From contig CAWAIF010000003.1 in NCBI GenBank assembly GCA_963782055.1, positions 4,992,001 to 5,056,000 of the forward strand: a DNA stretch of 64,000 nt, given 5' to 3'. Made by a program: the position numbers and the translations under genes. Below, one piece after another: positions 1-8,081 of the stretch (positions within the stretch are counted from its first letter, which is position 1; each line of letters starts with the position of its first letter). This DNA comes from an uncultured delta proteobacterium. Lineage in GTDB: Bacteria; Myxococcota_A; Polyangia; Polyangiales; Polyangiaceae. Under the pieces are notes generated by a model. The model did not search any database, was not told where the DNA came from, and worked only from the letters and a program-made list of their open reading frames with translations.

Positions 1-1278
1 CGCCTCGGCGTGAGCGCCCGACGCGAGGCTCGCGCGGCCCATCTCGAACCGGAAGAACGCGTCGAGCAGGCCGGGCGCGCCAAAGAGCACCGCGAGCGTC
101 TCGCACGCCTCCCGCGCCCTCGCCCCGGCGGCGGCGTGCTGGCCCATGTCGTTGCATGCGCACACGGCGTCGTAGCGCGCGAGCAGCGCCTCGAAGTCCG
201 CGCCGCCGCGACAGGCGGCTGCCTCGTCCAGGGTCGCGAGCGCCTCCTCCAGGCGCCCCTCACGGCGCAGCGCCGAGCCGCGGAGCGCGAGCACCTTGGC
301 CGCGAGCGCGCCGCGCGGACCGTCGACGCGGATCGCCTCCGCGTGCGCCGCGCCGAGCTCGGCGTTGGCGGCCGCGAGGCGCCCCTGGTCCAGGAGCTCC
401 CCGGCGCGCCGGAGCGCGTCGAGCAACGCGGCGTCGTCCTCGCCGAACGCCCGGACGCCCGACCGCGCGACGAGGACCGTCGGGCCGCGTGAGGTCGACT
501 CGATCACCACGTCGAAGAAGACGTTGCGCCCACCGTGCCACGCGGTGCCCGCGCGCAGCGCGATCAGACCCCACGCGGGCTGGCTCACCCCCGGGATGGA
601 CGCCATCTCGGCGTAGCGCTCGGCGACGGCGGGGAGGAGCTTCGGCGGGATCGCGGCGATGGCGTCGGCGGCCTCCACCCACCGCGCCCCGTCCCACGCC
701 CGGAGCTCCGGCGCGTCGCCGAGCGCGATGCGCATCCGCGTCCACCGACCCCGGGTGAGCGTGAGCAGCAACATGTTCGCGAGGCGCACCACCGGCGGGT
801 CCGGCGACTGTCCCCCGTCCGGCGCGGGTGCGGCCGCAGGGGGCGCCGCCTCGCCGTGGGCGAAGACGGTGATCAGGGCTCCCACGATGGACTGCTCCGA
901 GGCCACCTCCACCTCCAGGTCGGCCTGCGCGGCGAACTGCACCGCCGCGAGGGCGTCGTGGTCGGTCGGGTCCGCCGCCGCGACGCGGAGCACGCGGCCG
1001 CGCCTCGCCACCGGCGCCATCCGCGTGCGAAAGAGGAGCTTCGCGCCGAGCGCGTGGCACGCCTCACCGTCCAACTCCCCACCCCAGACAGGGAGGCCGT
1101 ACGCGCACGACCGGGCCTCCACGATCGCATCCTCCGAGAGCGCGCCGCGCACCACCAGCGCCGCCGCCACGCTCGTGTCCAGTGCCCTGGCGGTGTGACG
1201 CGCCCATTCCAGCTCCTGCGGGTCGAGGCCGCCGTCGAGCAGGACCCGCTCGAGCGGCGACGGCACCGGGGACGCCAT
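1..1278 (-). CDS. GspE/PilB N-terminal-like (degenerate MshEN) domain fused to TPR-like helices; runs off the window edge
   Basis: Hand translation from ATG 1278 is open to position 1 (not in the ORF track): MASPVPSPLERVLLDGGLDPQEL...LRVAAADPTDHDALAAVQF...PPVVRLANMLLL...ALRREGRLEEALATLDEA. No Walker A motif in the visible part. Confidence 0.65.
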   Translation of the reverse strand, partial: MASPVPSPLERVLLDGGLDPQELEWARHTARALDTSVAAALVVRGALSEDAIVEARSCAYGLPVWGGELDGEACHALGAKLLFRTRMAPVARRGRVLRVAAADPTDHDALAAVQFAAQADLEVEVASEQSIVGALITVFAHGEAAPPAAAPAPDGGQSPDPPVVRLANMLLLTLTRGRWTRMRIALGDAPELRAWDGARWVEAADAIAAIPPKLLPAVAERYAEMASIPGVSQPAWGLIALRAGTAWHGGRNVFFDVVIESTSRGPTVLVARSGVRAFGEDDAALLDALRRAGELLDQGRLAAANAELGAAHAEAIRVDGPRGALAAKVLALRGSALRREGRLEEALATLDEAAACRGGADFEALLARYDAVCACNDMGQHAAAGARAREACETLAVLFGAPGLLDAFFRFEMGRASLASGAHAEA

Positions 1279-1946: not shown

Positions 1947-3425
1947 TCAGCTCGGGGTCCGCGCGCGGCGCTTGCGACCCAGGCCGCGACGCTCCAGCAG
2001 GCGGTAGAGGGTGACGGCGTCGACCCCCGCCAGGGCGGCGGCCCGGCGCACGTCGCCCGACGTCTCGGCGAGCAGGTCCTCCAGGTAGCGCCGCTCCAGC
2101 GGGGCCAGCCACTCCTCGCGCAGCTCCCGCAGACCGCGTCGCGCTGCGGGGGCGGGGGCGGGCGCCGGGGCGACGATGGACCGCGGCAGGTGCTCCGGCC
2201 GGATCTCCTGCCCTGCGCTCAGGATCACCGCGTGCTCCAGCGCGTTCTTCAGCTCGCGCACGTTGCCGGGAAAGTCGTAGCTCGCCAGCGCGGCGAGCGC
2301 CGCCGGCGAGACGGGGCCCGCGGGCAGCGCGTGCCGCTCCGCCGCGAGCTTCACGAAGACGTGCGTCAGCACCTCCAGGTTGTCCTTGTAGCGGCGCAGC
2401 GGCGGCAGCTCGAAGGTGATGACCCCCAGCCGGTAGTACAGGTCGTCGCGGAAGCGCCCCTCCTTCACCATCGCCGCGAGGTCGCGGTTGGTGGCGCAGA
2501 CGAGGCGCACGTCCACGCGCTCCGGCGCGCCGTCGCTACCGAGCGGCTGCACCTCGCCGTACTCCACCGCGCGCAGCACCTTGGCCTGGAGCATCAGCGG
2601 GAGCTCGCCGATCTCGTCCAGGAAGAGCGTGCCGCCGTGGGCCTTCTGCATCTCCCCGATCTTGTGCGCGGTGGCCCCGGTGAAGGCGCCGCGGCGATGA
2701 CCGAAGAGGGTGCTCTCCAGCAGCGTGTCCGGCACCGCCGCCGCGTTGACGATGACGAACGGCCGATCGGCGCGCCGGCTGTTGAAGTGGATGGCGTGCG
2801 CCACCAGCTCCTTGCCCGTCCCGCTCTCCCCCTGGACGAGGACCGGCGCGCTGGTGGGCGCCGCGTACTCGATGCGCCGCTCCACCTCCGTCCACTCCGG
2901 CGAGAGGCCCTTGATGAGGAAGGGGCGTCCCGTCGCCGCGCGGGTCGCGCGCTCCAGCGCGGCGCGTCGAAGGAAGCGCGCCGACGACGCCGCGAGCGCC
3001 TCCAGCTCCTCGACGTGCTGCTCGCTGAAGGCGCCCGGCTCGCGCGCCGAGACGGTCAGCACCCCGATCACGCGGCGCTGGTAGCGAATGGGCACCGCGA
3101 CGATGGACCGGACCTCGAGGAAATACCGCGCGTAGTTGGGGTCCCCGCGCGTGTCGGCGGCGAGGTAGGGCGCGTCGTGCTCCAGCACCCAGAAGGCGAT
3201 GCCGTTGGGGCGGCCGTCGCGGCGCCGCTCGAGCACCGCGCCCGGGAGGTTCACCACCAGCCCCTCGACGACGTGGAAGTGCACCACGAGCGCGTCGCGC
3301 TTCGCGTCCCGGAGAAAGAGCGCGCCGTTGCGCGCCCCGGTCCGCGCGAGGGCCTCCTCCATCAGCCGCTGCTCGATGGTCTCCGCCTCCGCGGCGTGCA
3401 GTCGGTGCTCCGAGCCTCGCGCCAT
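1947..3425 (-). CDS. Sigma-54-dependent transcriptional activator (GAF + AAA+ + Fis-type HTH)
   Basis: GESGTGKE Walker A, GAFTGA, LFLDEIGE, FRDDLYYRL, FPGNVREL, C-terminal HTH; N-terminal GAF (RSIVAVPI...IGVLTV). Start chosen at ATG 3425. Confidence 0.95.
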   Translation of the reverse strand: MARGSEHRLHAAEAETIEQRLMEEALARTGARNGALFLRDAKRDALVVHFHVVEGLVVNLPGAVLERRRDGRPNGIAFWVLEHDAPYLAADTRGDPNYARYFLEVRSIVAVPIRYQRRVIGVLTVSAREPGAFSEQHVEELEALAASSARFLRRAALERATRAATGRPFLIKGLSPEWTEVERRIEYAAPTSAPVLVQGESGTGKELVAHAIHFNSRRADRPFVIVNAAAVPDTLLESTLFGHRRGAFTGATAHKIGEMQKAHGGTLFLDEIGELPLMLQAKVLRAVEYGEVQPLGSDGAPERVDVRLVCATNRDLAAMVKEGRFRDDLYYRLGVITFELPPLRRYKDNLEVLTHVFVKLAAERHALPAGPVSPAALAALASYDFPGNVRELKNALEHAVILSAGQEIRPEHLPRSIVAPAPAPAPAARRGLRELREEWLAPLERRYLEDLLAETSGDVRRAAALAGVDAVTLYRLLERRGLGRKRRARTPS

Positions 3426-3449
3426 GGGATTGCGATGATTCCACTGGAC

Positions 3450-3470
3450 TTGCATTTCTGCAACAGTTGC
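3450..3470. promoter_or_regulatory. Putative enhancer (UAS) for the sigma-54 activator
   Basis: Overlapping palindromes TTGCA-TTTC-TGCAA (3450-3463) and GCAAC-A-GTTGC (3460-3470) in an AT-rich patch about 70-90 bp upstream of a -24/-12 motif. Confidence 0.5.
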
Positions 3471-3536
3471 TATCATTCGCACAACTACGGGCGCGCCGAC
3501 TCCGCGGTTTCCCGCGGGGAGCAGGAGGCGGAGGCG

Positions 3537-3552
3537 TGGCACGCGTCTTGTA
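3537..3552 (+). promoter_or_regulatory. Putative sigma-54 (-24/-12) promoter
   Basis: TGGCACG-CGTC-TTGTA versus consensus TGGCACG-N4-TTGCW; one mismatch (GC>GT at -12); divergent from the activator gene. Confidence 0.65.
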
Positions 3553-3566
3553 AAAGGCCGCGCATC

Positions 3567-3767
3567 ATGAAGGTGCCCGTCGTCCTCGAGCCCAGCGTCC
3601 GCACCGGACGCGTCCGCGCCTACTGCCCCGACCTGCCCGGCTGCTCCGCCGTCGCCGGGTCGGAGCCGGACGCCCTCGCCCTGCTCCGTCGGCGCATCGA
3701 GGACTACTTCGCCCGCTCCCCCCTGCGCGCCGCACCCGGCACGCGCACCACCACCGTCGAAGTCTGA
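3567..3767 (+). CDS. HicB-like antitoxin-fold protein (66 aa, no DNA-binding domain)
   Basis: MKVPVVLEP...RAYCPDLPGCSAVAGSEPDALALLRRRIEDYF matches the HicB N-terminal pattern (PDLPGC...G....EA); buried at the end of ORF 2190..3767. Confidence 0.75.
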   Translation: MKVPVVLEPSVRTGRVRAYCPDLPGCSAVAGSEPDALALLRRRIEDYFARSPLRAAPGTRTTTVEV

Positions 3768-3790
3768 AAGCACCGCACAGGAAGCTCGCC

Positions 3791-5071
3791 ATGAACCACC
3801 GCCTCGCCCTCGCCCTGCTCGCCTCGTCGCTCTTCTTCCCGGCCTGCGCCATGAACACCGGTGATCCCACGGCGTCCAGCTCCGGGGCCGCGCTCAGCAT
3901 GTCGGCGGACGACGCCGCGCGTGTGCTCGCGCTGGTCAACTACCCCGGCACCGACCGCACGACGCTGGACGACGCCGTGGGCCTGGACGCCCGCGCGGCG
4001 CAGAACATCGCGGCGTACCGCGCCGGCGACGACGGCGTCGTGCCGTCGGCGGACGACCGCTACTTCGGCGACCTCGGCGAGCTCGACGCCGTCCCGTACG
4101 TCGGCGACTCGGCCTTCCAGAAGCTCCAGGCCTACGCAGCCAACCACGCGGTGCCCGCGGCGGAGTCGGTGGAGGGCGTCTACTTCCGCGGCTGGCAGTC
4201 ACAGACGGTGGTGTGGGCGGTCGATCACCTGGACGAGGCGTCGCTCGACGCGGTGCTCGACTCCCGCGCCGCCAAGAATCTGGTGGCGGCCCGCCCCTTC
4301 TCCACGGTGACGGCCATGGGCCCGGTCTCGTACGTGGGCGGCAGCGCGCTCGCCAGCCTGCGTGACGCCGCGACCACGTGGTGGCCGCTGATGCAGTCCA
4401 ACGCCACCGAGAGCCTGGCCGGGACCTTCGACGGCGTCGCCTTCGACGAGCCGACGGCGGAGACGGCCCTGGAGATCGCCAACCAGGCGAGCGCGGCGCG
4501 GCTCACCGCGCATGGCGTGGCGACGCACCCCGCCGACCTGATGGTCGCCGGCCGCGCCTACACCACGCTCGCCGCGGTGGCGGGCGTCTCCGGCGTGGGC
4601 ACGGCGACGATGGCCGCCCTCCACGACTACGCGACGAGCGGCGACTGGGGCCAGGACCCCAACGCGTGCGTCGACGCCTTCCAGGCCGCGGTCTCGCCGC
4701 ACCTGGGCGATCTCTTGCTGATGAGCGAGAGCGATCGCCCGCTCGACCTCGTCTCGTACCCCGGCGCGGGCACGCAGGCGCCCACCGCCGACTCGGTGCT
4801 CGCCCTCGTCGGCGCGGAGGCGGGGAGCACCGCGGAGGTTCGCACCCTCGACTACTTCAAGATGGTGCTCGAGCCCTCCAGCGACAACGCCGACCCCAAC
4901 GCCGCGGCGGACGTGGTGGCGGCGATCGGGGCGCAGCTCACCGACGTCATCGTGGTGAAGGTGCACAAGCCCCAGAACGACCCCTACAGCGCCGAGGTGG
5001 ACATGTACGTGCTCGGCCGCACCTCCTGCGGCGATCTGGTGGGCCTCCACGCCATCGCGATCGAGACCTGA
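3791..5071 (+). CDS. Lipoprotein with three helix-hairpin-helix (ComEA-like) repeats and a C-terminal NuiA (nuclease A inhibitor)-like domain
   Basis: Lipobox FFPAC; repeats ending ELDAVPYVG / MGPVSYVG / VAGVSGVG; NuiA-like LLLMSESDRP and terminal EVDMYVLGRTSCGDLVGLHAIAIET. Confidence 0.8.
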   Translation: MNHRLALALLASSLFFPACAMNTGDPTASSSGAALSMSADDAARVLALVNYPGTDRTTLDDAVGLDARAAQNIAAYRAGDDGVVPSADDRYFGDLGELDAVPYVGDSAFQKLQAYAANHAVPAAESVEGVYFRGWQSQTVVWAVDHLDEASLDAVLDSRAAKNLVAARPFSTVTAMGPVSYVGGSALASLRDAATTWWPLMQSNATESLAGTFDGVAFDEPTAETALEIANQASAARLTAHGVATHPADLMVAGRAYTTLAAVAGVSGVGTATMAALHDYATSGDWGQDPNACVDAFQAAVSPHLGDLLLMSESDRPLDLVSYPGAGTQAPTADSVLALVGAEAGSTAEVRTLDYFKMVLEPSSDNADPNAAADVVAAIGAQLTDVIVVKVHKPQNDPYSAEVDMYVLGRTSCGDLVGLHAIAIET

Positions 5072-5152
5072 ACCGGTCGCAGGCGCCGCGGCCCTCCGCG
5101 CGTCGGGCTTCCCGGCCTGGAATGGATCTCCGCACCGACCCCGCGCGGGCAG

Positions 5153-5842
5153 TTGCCGCGCGGCGCCGGCGCATCGACCGCCCCTGCTACTGGATGGTGG
5201 CCATGCCCGAGGGCGCGGCGGGCCCGGCGCTTATGTCCTGCATGGTCGGCGCCCGCGGTGCTGTGGCCGTCGGTGCGCGCGCTGCGCAAGCGACACCCGC
5301 GCCTGCTGCCTCGCCTCCTCGTCCTCGACCCCACCCACCTTCAGGAGTCGCTGCTGCGCGGCGAGGTGGACGTCGCGCTGCTCGACCGGCCGCCGCCACC
5401 CAGCGCGGAGCTCTTCGTCGAGCGGCTCGGGCGGCTGGGTCACGGCATCTTCGCGCCGCCCGGTCACCCCCTGGCGGGCCGGCGCAACCTCGATCTGCGG
5501 GAGGTCGCGACGTACGCGTTCGCCGTCGCCGCACCGCGCGCCGACGATCCCGTGCCGCCCGACCGCTGGCCCGCGGAGATCCCGCGCGAGGAGCTGCTGC
5601 GCGTGGCGGACGTCGCCATGGCCGCCGACGCGTGCGCGGAGGTCGGCGTGCTGGCGGTCCTGCCCGATCTGGTGGGACGAGGTCACGCCGGCGGGCTCCG
5701 CCGCCTCCCGGTGGCGCTGCCGTCTGGCGCGGAGGCCGATCTCTATGCGGTGGCCCGGGCGCCGGCGGGCGGCGCGCACCATGCCCGCACCGACGCCGCG
5801 CTGGAGGTGCTGCGCGCGCGGGCGGGTACGCTCTCGACCTGA
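5153..5842 (+). CDS. LysR-type substrate-binding domain without HTH (start uncertain, possibly truncated)
   Basis: VLWPSVRALRKRHPRL...LLRGEVDVALL...APPGHPLA...GVLAVLPD. Confidence 0.6.
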   Translation: MPRGAGASTAPATGWWPCPRARRARRLCPAWSAPAVLWPSVRALRKRHPRLLPRLLVLDPTHLQESLLRGEVDVALLDRPPPPSAELFVERLGRLGHGIFAPPGHPLAGRRNLDLREVATYAFAVAAPRADDPVPPDRWPAEIPREELLRVADVAMAADACAEVGVLAVLPDLVGRGHAGGLRRLPVALPSGAEADLYAVARAPAGGAHHARTDAALEVLRARAGTLST

Positions 5843-6629: not shown

Positions 6630-8081
6630 ATGCGCTCCTTCTTCCTCCTCCTCGCGATCCCGGCGCTCGTGGCGTGCAGCACGCAGGACACGGGCTCCGC
6701 CCCGGACGACGCGGGGGAGCCCGACGTCGACACGCGCCCGCCCACGCCGACGGAGTGGGACCGGCCGGTCACTCGCCCGGACGACTCGCAGGCGGACGCC
6801 GACCGCGCGGCGTGCAAGTTCGCGCGCGGGGCGCTGGCGGGGGAGACGCTCGGCAAGAGCACGCCCATCGAGGACGACATCCCCATCCAGAACATCGTGT
6901 TTTTGGTGATGGAGAACCACTCCTTCGACAACTACTACTCGAAGCTTGCAGAGTACACGCATCGCACCAACATCGAGGTCGCGCCGGCCGACGCGTCCAA
7001 CCCCGACCTCGTCGACGGCGGCACCAAGACCATCCTGCGGCAGCACGCGCCCCACAAGTGCACGCTGGACACCGGGCACGGCTGGCGCGCCTCCCACCAG
7101 GAGTACGACGACGGCAAGAACGACGGCTTCGTCCAGGTCAACGAGGAGGGCACGCCCCTCGGCGCCGGGGAGCAATCGCTCTACTACTGGGACCAGAGCG
7201 ACATCCCCTTCTACTACCAGCTCTCCAGCACCTTCGCGATCGCCGACCACTACCACTGCTCGCTGCTCGGCCCCACCTGGCCGAACCGCATGTTCACCTA
7301 CGCGGCGACGAGCTTCGGCCGCACCAGCAACGACCTGCCGGACCTCTCCGGGTACCCCTTCCCCGACAAGGACGCGACGATCCTGGACGAGCTGGAGAAG
7401 CGCCACGTGGACTGGGGCGTCTACTCCGATGGCCCGTCCGGCGCGCTCACGGTCTACGGCGCGGCCGTCCTCTCGCGCTGGGGCCGGCGCGTGACGCACT
7501 TCGACTCCGACTTCTTCACCGATGCCGCCGCCGGCACCCTGCCGCAGGTGGCGTACCTCGACGCCAACTCGCTCTCGGAGGGTCCGGCGGGCAACGACGA
7601 GCACCCCCCCGCGGACGTGCAGATCGGGCAGAAGTTCGTGAGCGACGTGGTGCACGCCCTCTTCGCCAGCCCGCAGTGGCCGCACCTGGCGCTGTTCATC
7701 ACCTACGACGAGCACGGCGGCTACTACGATCACGTCCCGCCGCCAAAGGCGTGCCTGCCCGGCGATCACGCCCCCATCCTCTCCGACAAGGACCCGCCGG
7801 GCGACTTCGACCGCTACGGGTTCCGGGTGCCGTTCATCGTCGTCTCTCCGTACGCGAAGAAGGCGTACGTCTCGCACACGACCTACGACCACACGAGCAT
7901 CCTGCGCTTCATCGAGGCCAAATTCCGCGTGCCCGCGCTGACCGGCCGCGACGCCAACGCCAACGTGATGACCGACATGTTCGACTTCGCCAACCCGCCG
8001 TTCCTCACGCCGCCGGACATCCCCGCGCCGACGATCGACCAGACCGAGGCGGACTACTGCGTGGCGACGTACTCCAAGTGA
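6630..8081 (+). CDS. Phosphoesterase / phospholipase C (AcpA/PlcH family) lipoprotein
   Basis: MENHSFDNYY, GPTWPNR, DEHPP, TYDEHGGYYDHVPPP, GFRVPFIVVSP, YDHTSILRFIE. Confidence 0.93.
   Translation: MRSFFLLLAIPALVACSTQDTGSAPDDAGEPDVDTRPPTPTEWDRPVTRPDDSQADADRAACKFARGALAGETLGKSTPIEDDIPIQNIVFLVMENHSFDNYYSKLAEYTHRTNIEVAPADASNPDLVDGGTKTILRQHAPHKCTLDTGHGWRASHQEYDDGKNDGFVQVNEEGTPLGAGEQSLYYWDQSDIPFYYQLSSTFAIADHYHCSLLGPTWPNRMFTYAATSFGRTSNDLPDLSGYPFPDKDATILDELEKRHVDWGVYSDGPSGALTVYGAAVLSRWGRRVTHFDSDFFTDAAAGTLPQVAYLDANSLSEGPAGNDEHPPADVQIGQKFVSDVVHALFASPQWPHLALFITYDEHGGYYDHVPPPKACLPGDHAPILSDKDPPGDFDRYGFRVPFIVVSPYAKKAYVSHTTYDHTSILRFIEAKFRVPALTGRDANANVMTDMFDFANPPFLTPPDIPAPTIDQTEADYCVATYSK

Follow-up and report, generated by a model that had tools for sequence, protein, structure and literature searches.

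Several described systems resemble parts of the locus analyzed here. The PexR regulator of Myxococcus xanthus is reported to use an upstream activating sequence (UAS) of the form CACCG-n6-CGGTG, to target ahpC and katB, and to possess His, Cys and Asp metal ligands (PMC12754779). In Anabaena, NuiA is the cytosolic self-protection partner of the nuclease NucA (PMC13522737), and its C-terminal residue makes the inhibitory metal bridge to NucA (PMC2790893). For the HicB antitoxin of Streptococcus pneumoniae, Thr33 and Glu47 were reported to mask the HicA histidine and the E47A substitution to abolish neutralization (PMC6159526), a toxin-masking role that is also reviewed elsewhere (PMC11594946). 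In ComEA of Vibrio cholerae, the G60E variant was non-transformable, K63A lowered transformation ~250-fold and K62/63A lost DNA binding (PMC3879209). Parts resembling all of these occur together in a window of 64,000 nt (the whole stretch of DNA that was analyzed, positions 4,992,001 to 5,056,000 of contig CAWAIF010000003.1, assembly GCA_963782055.1) from an uncultured member of the Polyangiaceae with a source genome of 7.58 Mb (97% complete), where a sigma-54 activator gene is divergent from a 66-aa HicB-like gene that is followed by a gene for a lipoprotein with helix-hairpin-helix (HhH) repeats and a NuiA-like C-terminus. An earlier note, made from the sequence of the window, had described this arrangement together with a palindrome and a -24/-12 motif, and its observations were confirmed: all three genes exist as described, as do the sigma-54 box and the palindrome, and they are conserved in other Myxococcota.

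The constant core of the unit is the activator with its promoter, usually joined by the gene for the HicB N-terminal-domain (HicB-N) protein, whereas the payload is interchangeable, with at least seven kinds of which NuiA is one; it is this core, rather than a pair of inhibitor folds as the earlier note had it, that defines the cassette. The named relatives belong to Myxococcota, with carriers in Polyangiaceae, Kofleriaceae, Polyangia and Myxococcaceae records, and the distribution is patchy, the lipoprotein being matched in one of six other genomes of the same genus. Filtering for non-duplicate loci that encode an HhH lipoprotein and extend 700 nt or more upstream reduced 63 loci to 49. Of these, 28 contained a complete NuiA-type gene, of which 15 also carried the small gene and the activator, one the activator only and 12 neither; in seven further loci the small gene and the activator were present but the payload was a different one or was truncated by the end of the sequence. 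The three-gene neighborhood recurs, and the small gene was accompanied by the activator in 22 of 22 loci.

Two profile searches extended this picture. With the small-protein profile in 401 genomes of the class, the best 13 loci all had a sigma-54 box and 12 had the activator, and their payloads were HhH-NuiA (seven), HhH with another domain (two), HhH only (one), an MBL lipoprotein (one) and no lipoprotein (two); the linkage of HicB-N to the activator spans six payload states. With the GAF profile in 401 genomes of the phylum, the activator was identified in 20 (E<=1e-30), which comprised three with a HicB-N and NuiA operon (one of them in trans), four with a lipoprotein of four DUF1508 domains (three checked with Pfam), two with an LTD-amidohydrolase lipoprotein, three with HhH only, one with a deletion joining the small-gene start to an HhH-P-domain gene, one with an extracytoplasmic function (ECF) sigma factor, two with no clear payload and four distant ones without the box. 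In a tree of 43 activators, built by a quick method with long outgroups and with row labels assigned by the authors, every HicB-N row fell in one weakly supported clade (SH-aLRT 82), in which 27 of 31 rows possessed HicB-N, the remnant and the trans case included, compared to none of the 12 rows outside. It is likely that HicB-N was gained once and retained through payload swaps, and the observed payload spread suggests that the unit is a switch for one interchangeable lipoprotein.

Several of the alternative payloads deserve separate mention. Four lipoproteins (L162, L165, L167, L169) carry four DUF1508 (YegP) domains and are preceded by this activator and its UAS; export of a DUF1508 protein is unexpected, and the domain has been described in stress-induced genes (bioRxiv 10.1101/2024.11.21.623966). 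At L041, L048, L064, L066 and L068 (also L040, L077 and L078) an unnamed domain of ~160 aa with three invariant cysteines and an ECS motif occupies the place of NuiA; it had no Pfam or Atlas match, and its identification as a remote NuiA was unsupported, with a probability of 0.3% in profile comparison and no usable match in either resource. Another unnamed, acidic helical domain stands in the place of NuiA at L060 and L099, and a segment resembling it appears to be inserted before NuiA at L030, L057, L058 and L061-L063.

The activator (positions 1947-3425, minus strand, 492 aa, from the sequence, the list of open reading frames (ORFs) and Pfam) is a GAF-AAA+-HTH enhancer-binding protein of a distinct orthologue family. 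It possesses the features of its class, a GAF sensor domain (PF01590, 1.3e-14), an AAA+ domain (Sigma54_activat, 1e-63) with an intact GAFTGA motif, and a DNA-binding helix-turn-helix (HTH_8). The GAF domain had only generic GAFs as matches in the PDB, and in an alignment of 23 GAF domains no Cys was present in the query or in the consensus. Between the divergent genes lie two predicted UAS sites, the palindrome CTTGCATTTCTGCAAC at 3449-3464, seen in the sequence and kept in an alignment of 25 loci, and a second site at 3470-3485, 21 bp after the first, which is degenerate here and better preserved in the relatives. The alignment shows two palindromes of the form GTTG[CA]A-N4-T[GT]CAAC, ~20 bp apart, and a GGCA[CT]-N5-TGC box, which in the window is the predicted sigma-54 -24/-12 box TGGCACGCGTCTTGTA at 3537-3552 on the plus strand. 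Both the box and the upstream dyad are recognized by conservation, and the -12 element reads GT where GC is expected from the consensus used for comparison (PMC12754779). The proposed sigma-54/GAF control was thus borne out at the level of conserved activator and promoter elements, from which we infer sigma-54 dependence of the promoter.

The promoter GG and the start of the small gene were separated by 26-29 nt in all but one of 30 rows (duplicates among them, and one start not found), which predicts a leader of 1-4 nt; in the window, transcription is predicted to start at ~3563, ~4 nt ahead of the ATG, giving a near-leaderless message. At promoters without HicB-N, the palindrome type was also present in nine of 11, whereas the distance was 44-77 nt in 10 of 11, with purine-rich leaders, and 18 nt in the degenerate L042. 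A weight-matrix scan of the genome for the regulon ranked the window first (44.6 versus 35.9), the window itself being within the training set and site 2 being cut one base off, and a genome scan with a strict double-site pattern for further regulon members gave no match. At one locus (L159, ~6900-7270), no clear gene follows the intact UAS and sigma-54 box; the sequence there is rich in hairpins and contains short tandem repeats, and it may represent a small RNA or the remains of a payload.

For the 66-aa protein (3567-3767, plus strand), assigned by fold search and sub-threshold Pfam evidence, the beta-beta-beta-alpha partial RNase H fold of COG1598/UPF0150 was recovered, and the earlier designation as HicB-like holds for the N-terminal HicB fold. 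Pfam gave no HicB match for the protein itself; PF15919 was touched below threshold by 24 of 31 family members (best 1e-3). The top fold matches of its model were the HicB-N structures 6g1c and TTHA0281 and UPF0150 structures at a modest Z of 6.7, followed by dsRBDs at Z ~5 and a weak match to the DUF1508 structure 6q2z, and an Atlas search concurred with the HicB-N fold (0.92). When the small genes of relatives were compared in pairs, third codon positions accounted for most of the differences in 10 of 10, which points to constraint at the protein level. The family members have 63-67 aa, an invariant Arg43, a net positive charge in 29 of 31 cases and no C-terminal RHH or HTH DNA-binding domain; the latter is not decisive, because short HicBs linked to HicA also lack one. 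At one locus (L031:6824-8269) the small ORF runs in frame into the lipoprotein with no stop between, which may be a fusion or an assembly error.

The proposal that this protein is a cytoplasmic anti-RNase partner fared less well. When the S. pneumoniae residues were located through their spacing and an alignment to 6g1c rather than by aligning that HicB directly, the Thr33 position is Ala in 26, Ser in four and Gly in one of 31 cassette proteins (the Ser/Thr being replaced in 27), and the Glu47 position is Glu in none of the 31, the next residue (+15) being Arg in all. In contrast, the search also yielded 17 HicB-like loci outside the cassette, which, after removal of two spurious pattern rows, had Ser in 17, Glu or Asp in 17 and then Ala in 17, and 10 of them had a HicA-like ORF alongside, recognized by a motif that we take to mark HicA. 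No hicA adjoins the cassette gene, whose neighbors are the activator and the lipoprotein. The single HicA-like ORF of the source genome lies ~1.69 Mb away and has a GSH motif, with no HicB-like neighbor found, and HicA was not found in three of five other carrier genomes, namely G005 (98% complete), G208 (93%) and G310 (53%). An anti-RNase role is unsupported, since the HicA-blocking residues are replaced and HicA was not found in these carriers. The HicA-like ORF itself (L092:1474-1950; G000:C3 ~6,682,500) has a Gly-rich tail, and ahead of it lie an ORF of TPR type and a gene resembling a sigma-54 activator.

The lipoprotein gene (3791-5071, plus strand, 426 aa, from the ORF list and Pfam) ends in a domain (4661-5071) that is a true NuiA homologue. 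It matched the Pfam family PF07924 at 3.9e-11 (43.8 bits against a cut-off of 22.1), and its model, taken from a lipoprotein model with pLDDT 92, matched NuiA in 2o3b_B with Z 16.3 and a root-mean-square deviation of 2.4 over 126 aligned residues (Foldseek 1e-6), an entry that the domain also matched at 4.9e-10; the fold comparison suggested earlier for the region from about nt 4660 to 5071 therefore gave the expected answer. Among 77 aligned full-length relatives, selected from the matches listed (120 of 279), the SESD motif and the terminal ET were invariant and a free C-terminal Thr was present in all 77, so that the inhibitory C-terminus is retained, as is the SES Glu, which we take to be E24 of NuiA. 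Its nuclease was sought with searches whose controls were positive: the NucA family PF01223 was found in none of six carrier genomes (the source and five others, completeness 53-98%), and PF04231 and PF13930 were not found in the source genome. The orphan status noted earlier stands, and the domain looks functional, judging from its conserved residues, with no recognizable self target. As no NucA was found in the six carrier genomes, it is likely directed at foreign nucleases. The statement that no hicA or nucA is recognizable in the window agrees with genome-wide searches that included it (no NucA, the sole HicA-like ORF being the distant one), the remainder of the window not having been scanned gene by gene.

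The lipoprotein anchor and the HhH region bear on a different explanation. The signal peptide (3791-3847, plus strand) has the lipobox FPAC with Cys19, which is invariant in 77 of 77 relatives although lipobox variants occur. Three repeats had been noted, and the model indeed shows three acidic modules (aa 39-120, 121-203 and 207-285; 3905-4645, plus strand), each an (HhH)2-like unit supported by fold and profile matches: HHH_3 at 7e-6, just under the cut-off, TEFM-N at Z 8.8, and, in the comparison to ComEA that had been called for, 2duy at Z 5.5 with a profile match of 9e-5. The earlier idea that the repeats tether the protein to DNA appears doubtful, because they are acidic (median net charges -6, -2 and -3 for modules 1, 2 and 3 over the 77 relatives) and carry Asp and Ala at the ComEA Gly60 and Lys63 positions. 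By our motif-register mapping, the G60 equivalent is Asp in 72 of 77 in modules 1 and 2 each, the K63 equivalent is Ala in 74 and 73 of 77, respectively, and module 3 has no ComEA-type motif; the GIG hairpin with a Lys pair and a basic surface was not recovered. DNA binding may still occur, because the residue equivalent to K62 is Arg in 72 relatives for module 1 and in all 77 for module 2, while V-G is retained in the second hairpin.

That conserved Arg figures in an unlikely alternative, in which the locus belongs to a regulon for DNA or nucleotide handling: the GAF domain would sense extracellular DNA breakdown products, the HhH modules would bind DNA through the Arg, NuiA would shield DNA for uptake or the matrix, and payloads such as the LTD-amidohydrolase and the MBL lipoprotein (with weak Pfam support and motifs that we read as ComEC-like) would process nucleic acids. 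The HhH module, a family of 1,848 representatives, is fused elsewhere to PLD, LTD and UDG, as this explanation would have it, but it is equally joined to P-domain, RCC1, GH25 and subtilase. Of the 150 best representatives, 146 were considered, and in these the partners were P-domain (13), NuiA (9), LTD (7), PLD (7) and amidohydrolase (6), with single cases of RCC1, GH25, subtilase and UDG, and the module thus behaves as a general lipoprotein unit, promiscuous in its predicted fusions. The acidic charge and the Asp and Ala substitutions, at positions where mutation in ComEA costs transformation, also speak against DNA handling. A second lipoprotein of the source genome (L137:7159-8271, minus strand; G000:C3 ~3,040,600) also carries these HhH modules and ends in a P-domain-like segment, and at L021 and L023 an HhH gene with a P-domain-like end directly follows the NuiA lipoprotein.

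It is rather improbable, in our estimate, that the switch is a general envelope-stress output that induces any downstream lipoprotein, with NuiA reduced to a metal- or protein-binding surface fold that has lost inhibition and the small ORF acting in cis by translation coupling or binding RNA. The rarity of the HicB-N and NuiA operon among activator-selected genomes (3 of 20), the 12 of 28 HhH-NuiA genes outside the cassette, and the positive charge and dsRBD-like fold matches of the small proteins would fit this, but the invariant positions of NuiA are exactly the inhibitory ones, including the free C-terminal Thr, and the small ORF appears to be constrained as a protein. The original interpretation as twin orphan inhibitors, in which NuiA is held on DNA outside the cell while an antitoxin in the cytoplasm neutralizes HicA-type RNases in trans, is very unlikely, for although the HicB-N fold, the unpartnered HicA-like ORF with its GSH motif and the Asn and Glu of L106 favor it, the Glu, whose substitution (E47A) abolishes neutralization in S. 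pneumoniae, is lost in all 31 cassette proteins, the Ser/Thr is replaced in 27, HicA was not found in G005, G208 and G310, and HicB-N persists at loci without NuiA. Of that interpretation, promoter control (at the level of conservation), the NuiA domain, its orphan status and the HicB fold have held, and the anti-RNase role, the DNA tether and the definition by two inhibitors have not.

The reading that we favor, with a probability of roughly 0.4, is a GAF-sigma-54 switch with a near-leaderless HicB-derived feedback partner and an envelope NuiA lipoprotein against foreign nucleases. A small-molecule or protein cue would relieve GAF inhibition, the activator on the tandem palindromes would fire the divergent sigma-54 promoter, and the near-leaderless first gene would yield the 66-aa protein, which may in turn modulate the activator by feedback, for which we take PspA acting on PspF as the analogy. 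It is from linkage and the residue change that such feedback appears likely, and the difference in promoter-to-start spacing between operons with and without HicB-N also counts for this reading. The lipoprotein would be exported, probably to the outer membrane, since Ala at +2 sorts lipoproteins there and is present here; the acidic HhH modules may be a spacer or scaffold presenting NuiA, and when beta-beta-alpha nucleases of prey or competitors arrive, the free C-terminal Thr would coordinate their metal. Several points weigh against it. HicB-N binding to the activator and NuiA activity are predictions, and complex prediction for GAF with the small protein gave runs of 0.38, 0.31 and 0.13 against a mark of 0.32, which we count neither way. 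HicB-N is dispensable, as the activator stands without it in 16 of the 43 rows of the tree, and in G233 the HicB-N and lipoprotein operon lies ~2.5 Mb from the activator. Because the DUF1508, LTD-amidohydrolase and P-domain payloads do not belong to inhibitor families, the cue may be something other than attack by nucleases. Asn and Glu are retained in L106, the most divergent member of the cassette family, and the lone HicA-like ORF of the source genome could be a trans target of the small protein. The locus counts are not independent, because the carriers are related to one another and were retrieved through their resemblance to the query.

The cassette is real and conserved, and it is apparently undescribed. 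A literature search with little coverage of subscription papers gave no account of NuiA lipoproteins in myxobacteria, nor of any HicB-like protein tied to a sigma-54 activator, and NCBIfam gave no equivalog at cut-off for the cassette proteins among the matches listed (25), while database labels already on the parts read 'nuclease A inhibitor family protein' and 'predicted RNase H-like HicB family nuclease'. The known role of NuiA is to protect a cell from within against its own nuclease. An exported orphan form, if true, would represent a new form of immunity between microbes and might supply nuclease inhibitors of broad range. The small-protein family offers a testable case of an antitoxin fold moving from toxin control to signaling, and the cassette defines an uncharacterized myxobacterial sigma-54 activator with a clear predicted binding site and swappable lipoprotein outputs, giving a handle on unexplained domains, namely DUF1508 lipoproteins, acidic HhH modules and the two unnamed domains. 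The boldest version, that an antitoxin domain from a toxin-antitoxin system was recruited to give feedback control over a sigma-54 activator driving, from a near-leaderless message, the first exported, inducible, orphan nuclease inhibitor as a surface shield against nucleases of prey or rivals, we regard as doubtful.

Around the cassette, no nuclease or hicA family and no conserved fourth gene were found among 70 selected flanking and payload ORFs. Downstream, positions 5100-5842 (plus strand) encode a LysR substrate-binding domain (3.8e-19) without an HTH match, with an MDLR-like start just upstream in another frame, probably a LysR pseudogene. Outside the cassette on the other side, positions 1-1278 (minus strand) encode an MshEN domain with a TPR-like C-terminus.

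Comparison with known systems places the cassette as follows. PspF/PspA, NifA/NifL and HrpS/HrpV are activator-inhibitor pairs, to which the likeness lies in the proposed logic only (modulation of an activator by a protein linked to it), with no relation in sequence or fold. PexR is the closest characterized regulator, being likewise a GAF-AAA-HTH activator from Myxococcota with a divergent sigma-54 target and tandem palindromes; identity with PexR was rejected, since the PexR-type UAS and the ahpC/katB targets were not recovered, and the activator here has another UAS and lipoprotein targets. Its GAF contains no Cys, and its metal ligands may also differ from the His/Cys/Asp set described for PexR, whose sequence lay outside the alignment. 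With the HicB antitoxins of Burkholderia pseudomallei (6g1c) and S. pneumoniae (5yrz) and short UPF0150/COG1598 proteins, the small protein shares the N-terminal partial RNase H fold, the PxxPGC motif and the terminal strand, whereas it has no DNA-binding domain and no adjacent hicA, its Ser/Thr and Glu are replaced, an Arg is invariant, and it is the first gene of a sigma-54 operon. With ComEA of V. cholerae and Thermus thermophilus (2duy), the lipoprotein shares the (HhH)2 fold and the envelope location, but here there are three acidic modules with Asp and Ala at the Gly60 and Lys63 positions, used as a promiscuous fusion unit. With Anabaena NucA/NuiA (2o3b), it shares the NuiA fold, the SES motif and the C-terminal Thr, and it differs in that no NucA accompanies it and in that the inhibitor domain is fused to a lipoprotein predicted to be exported and inducible.

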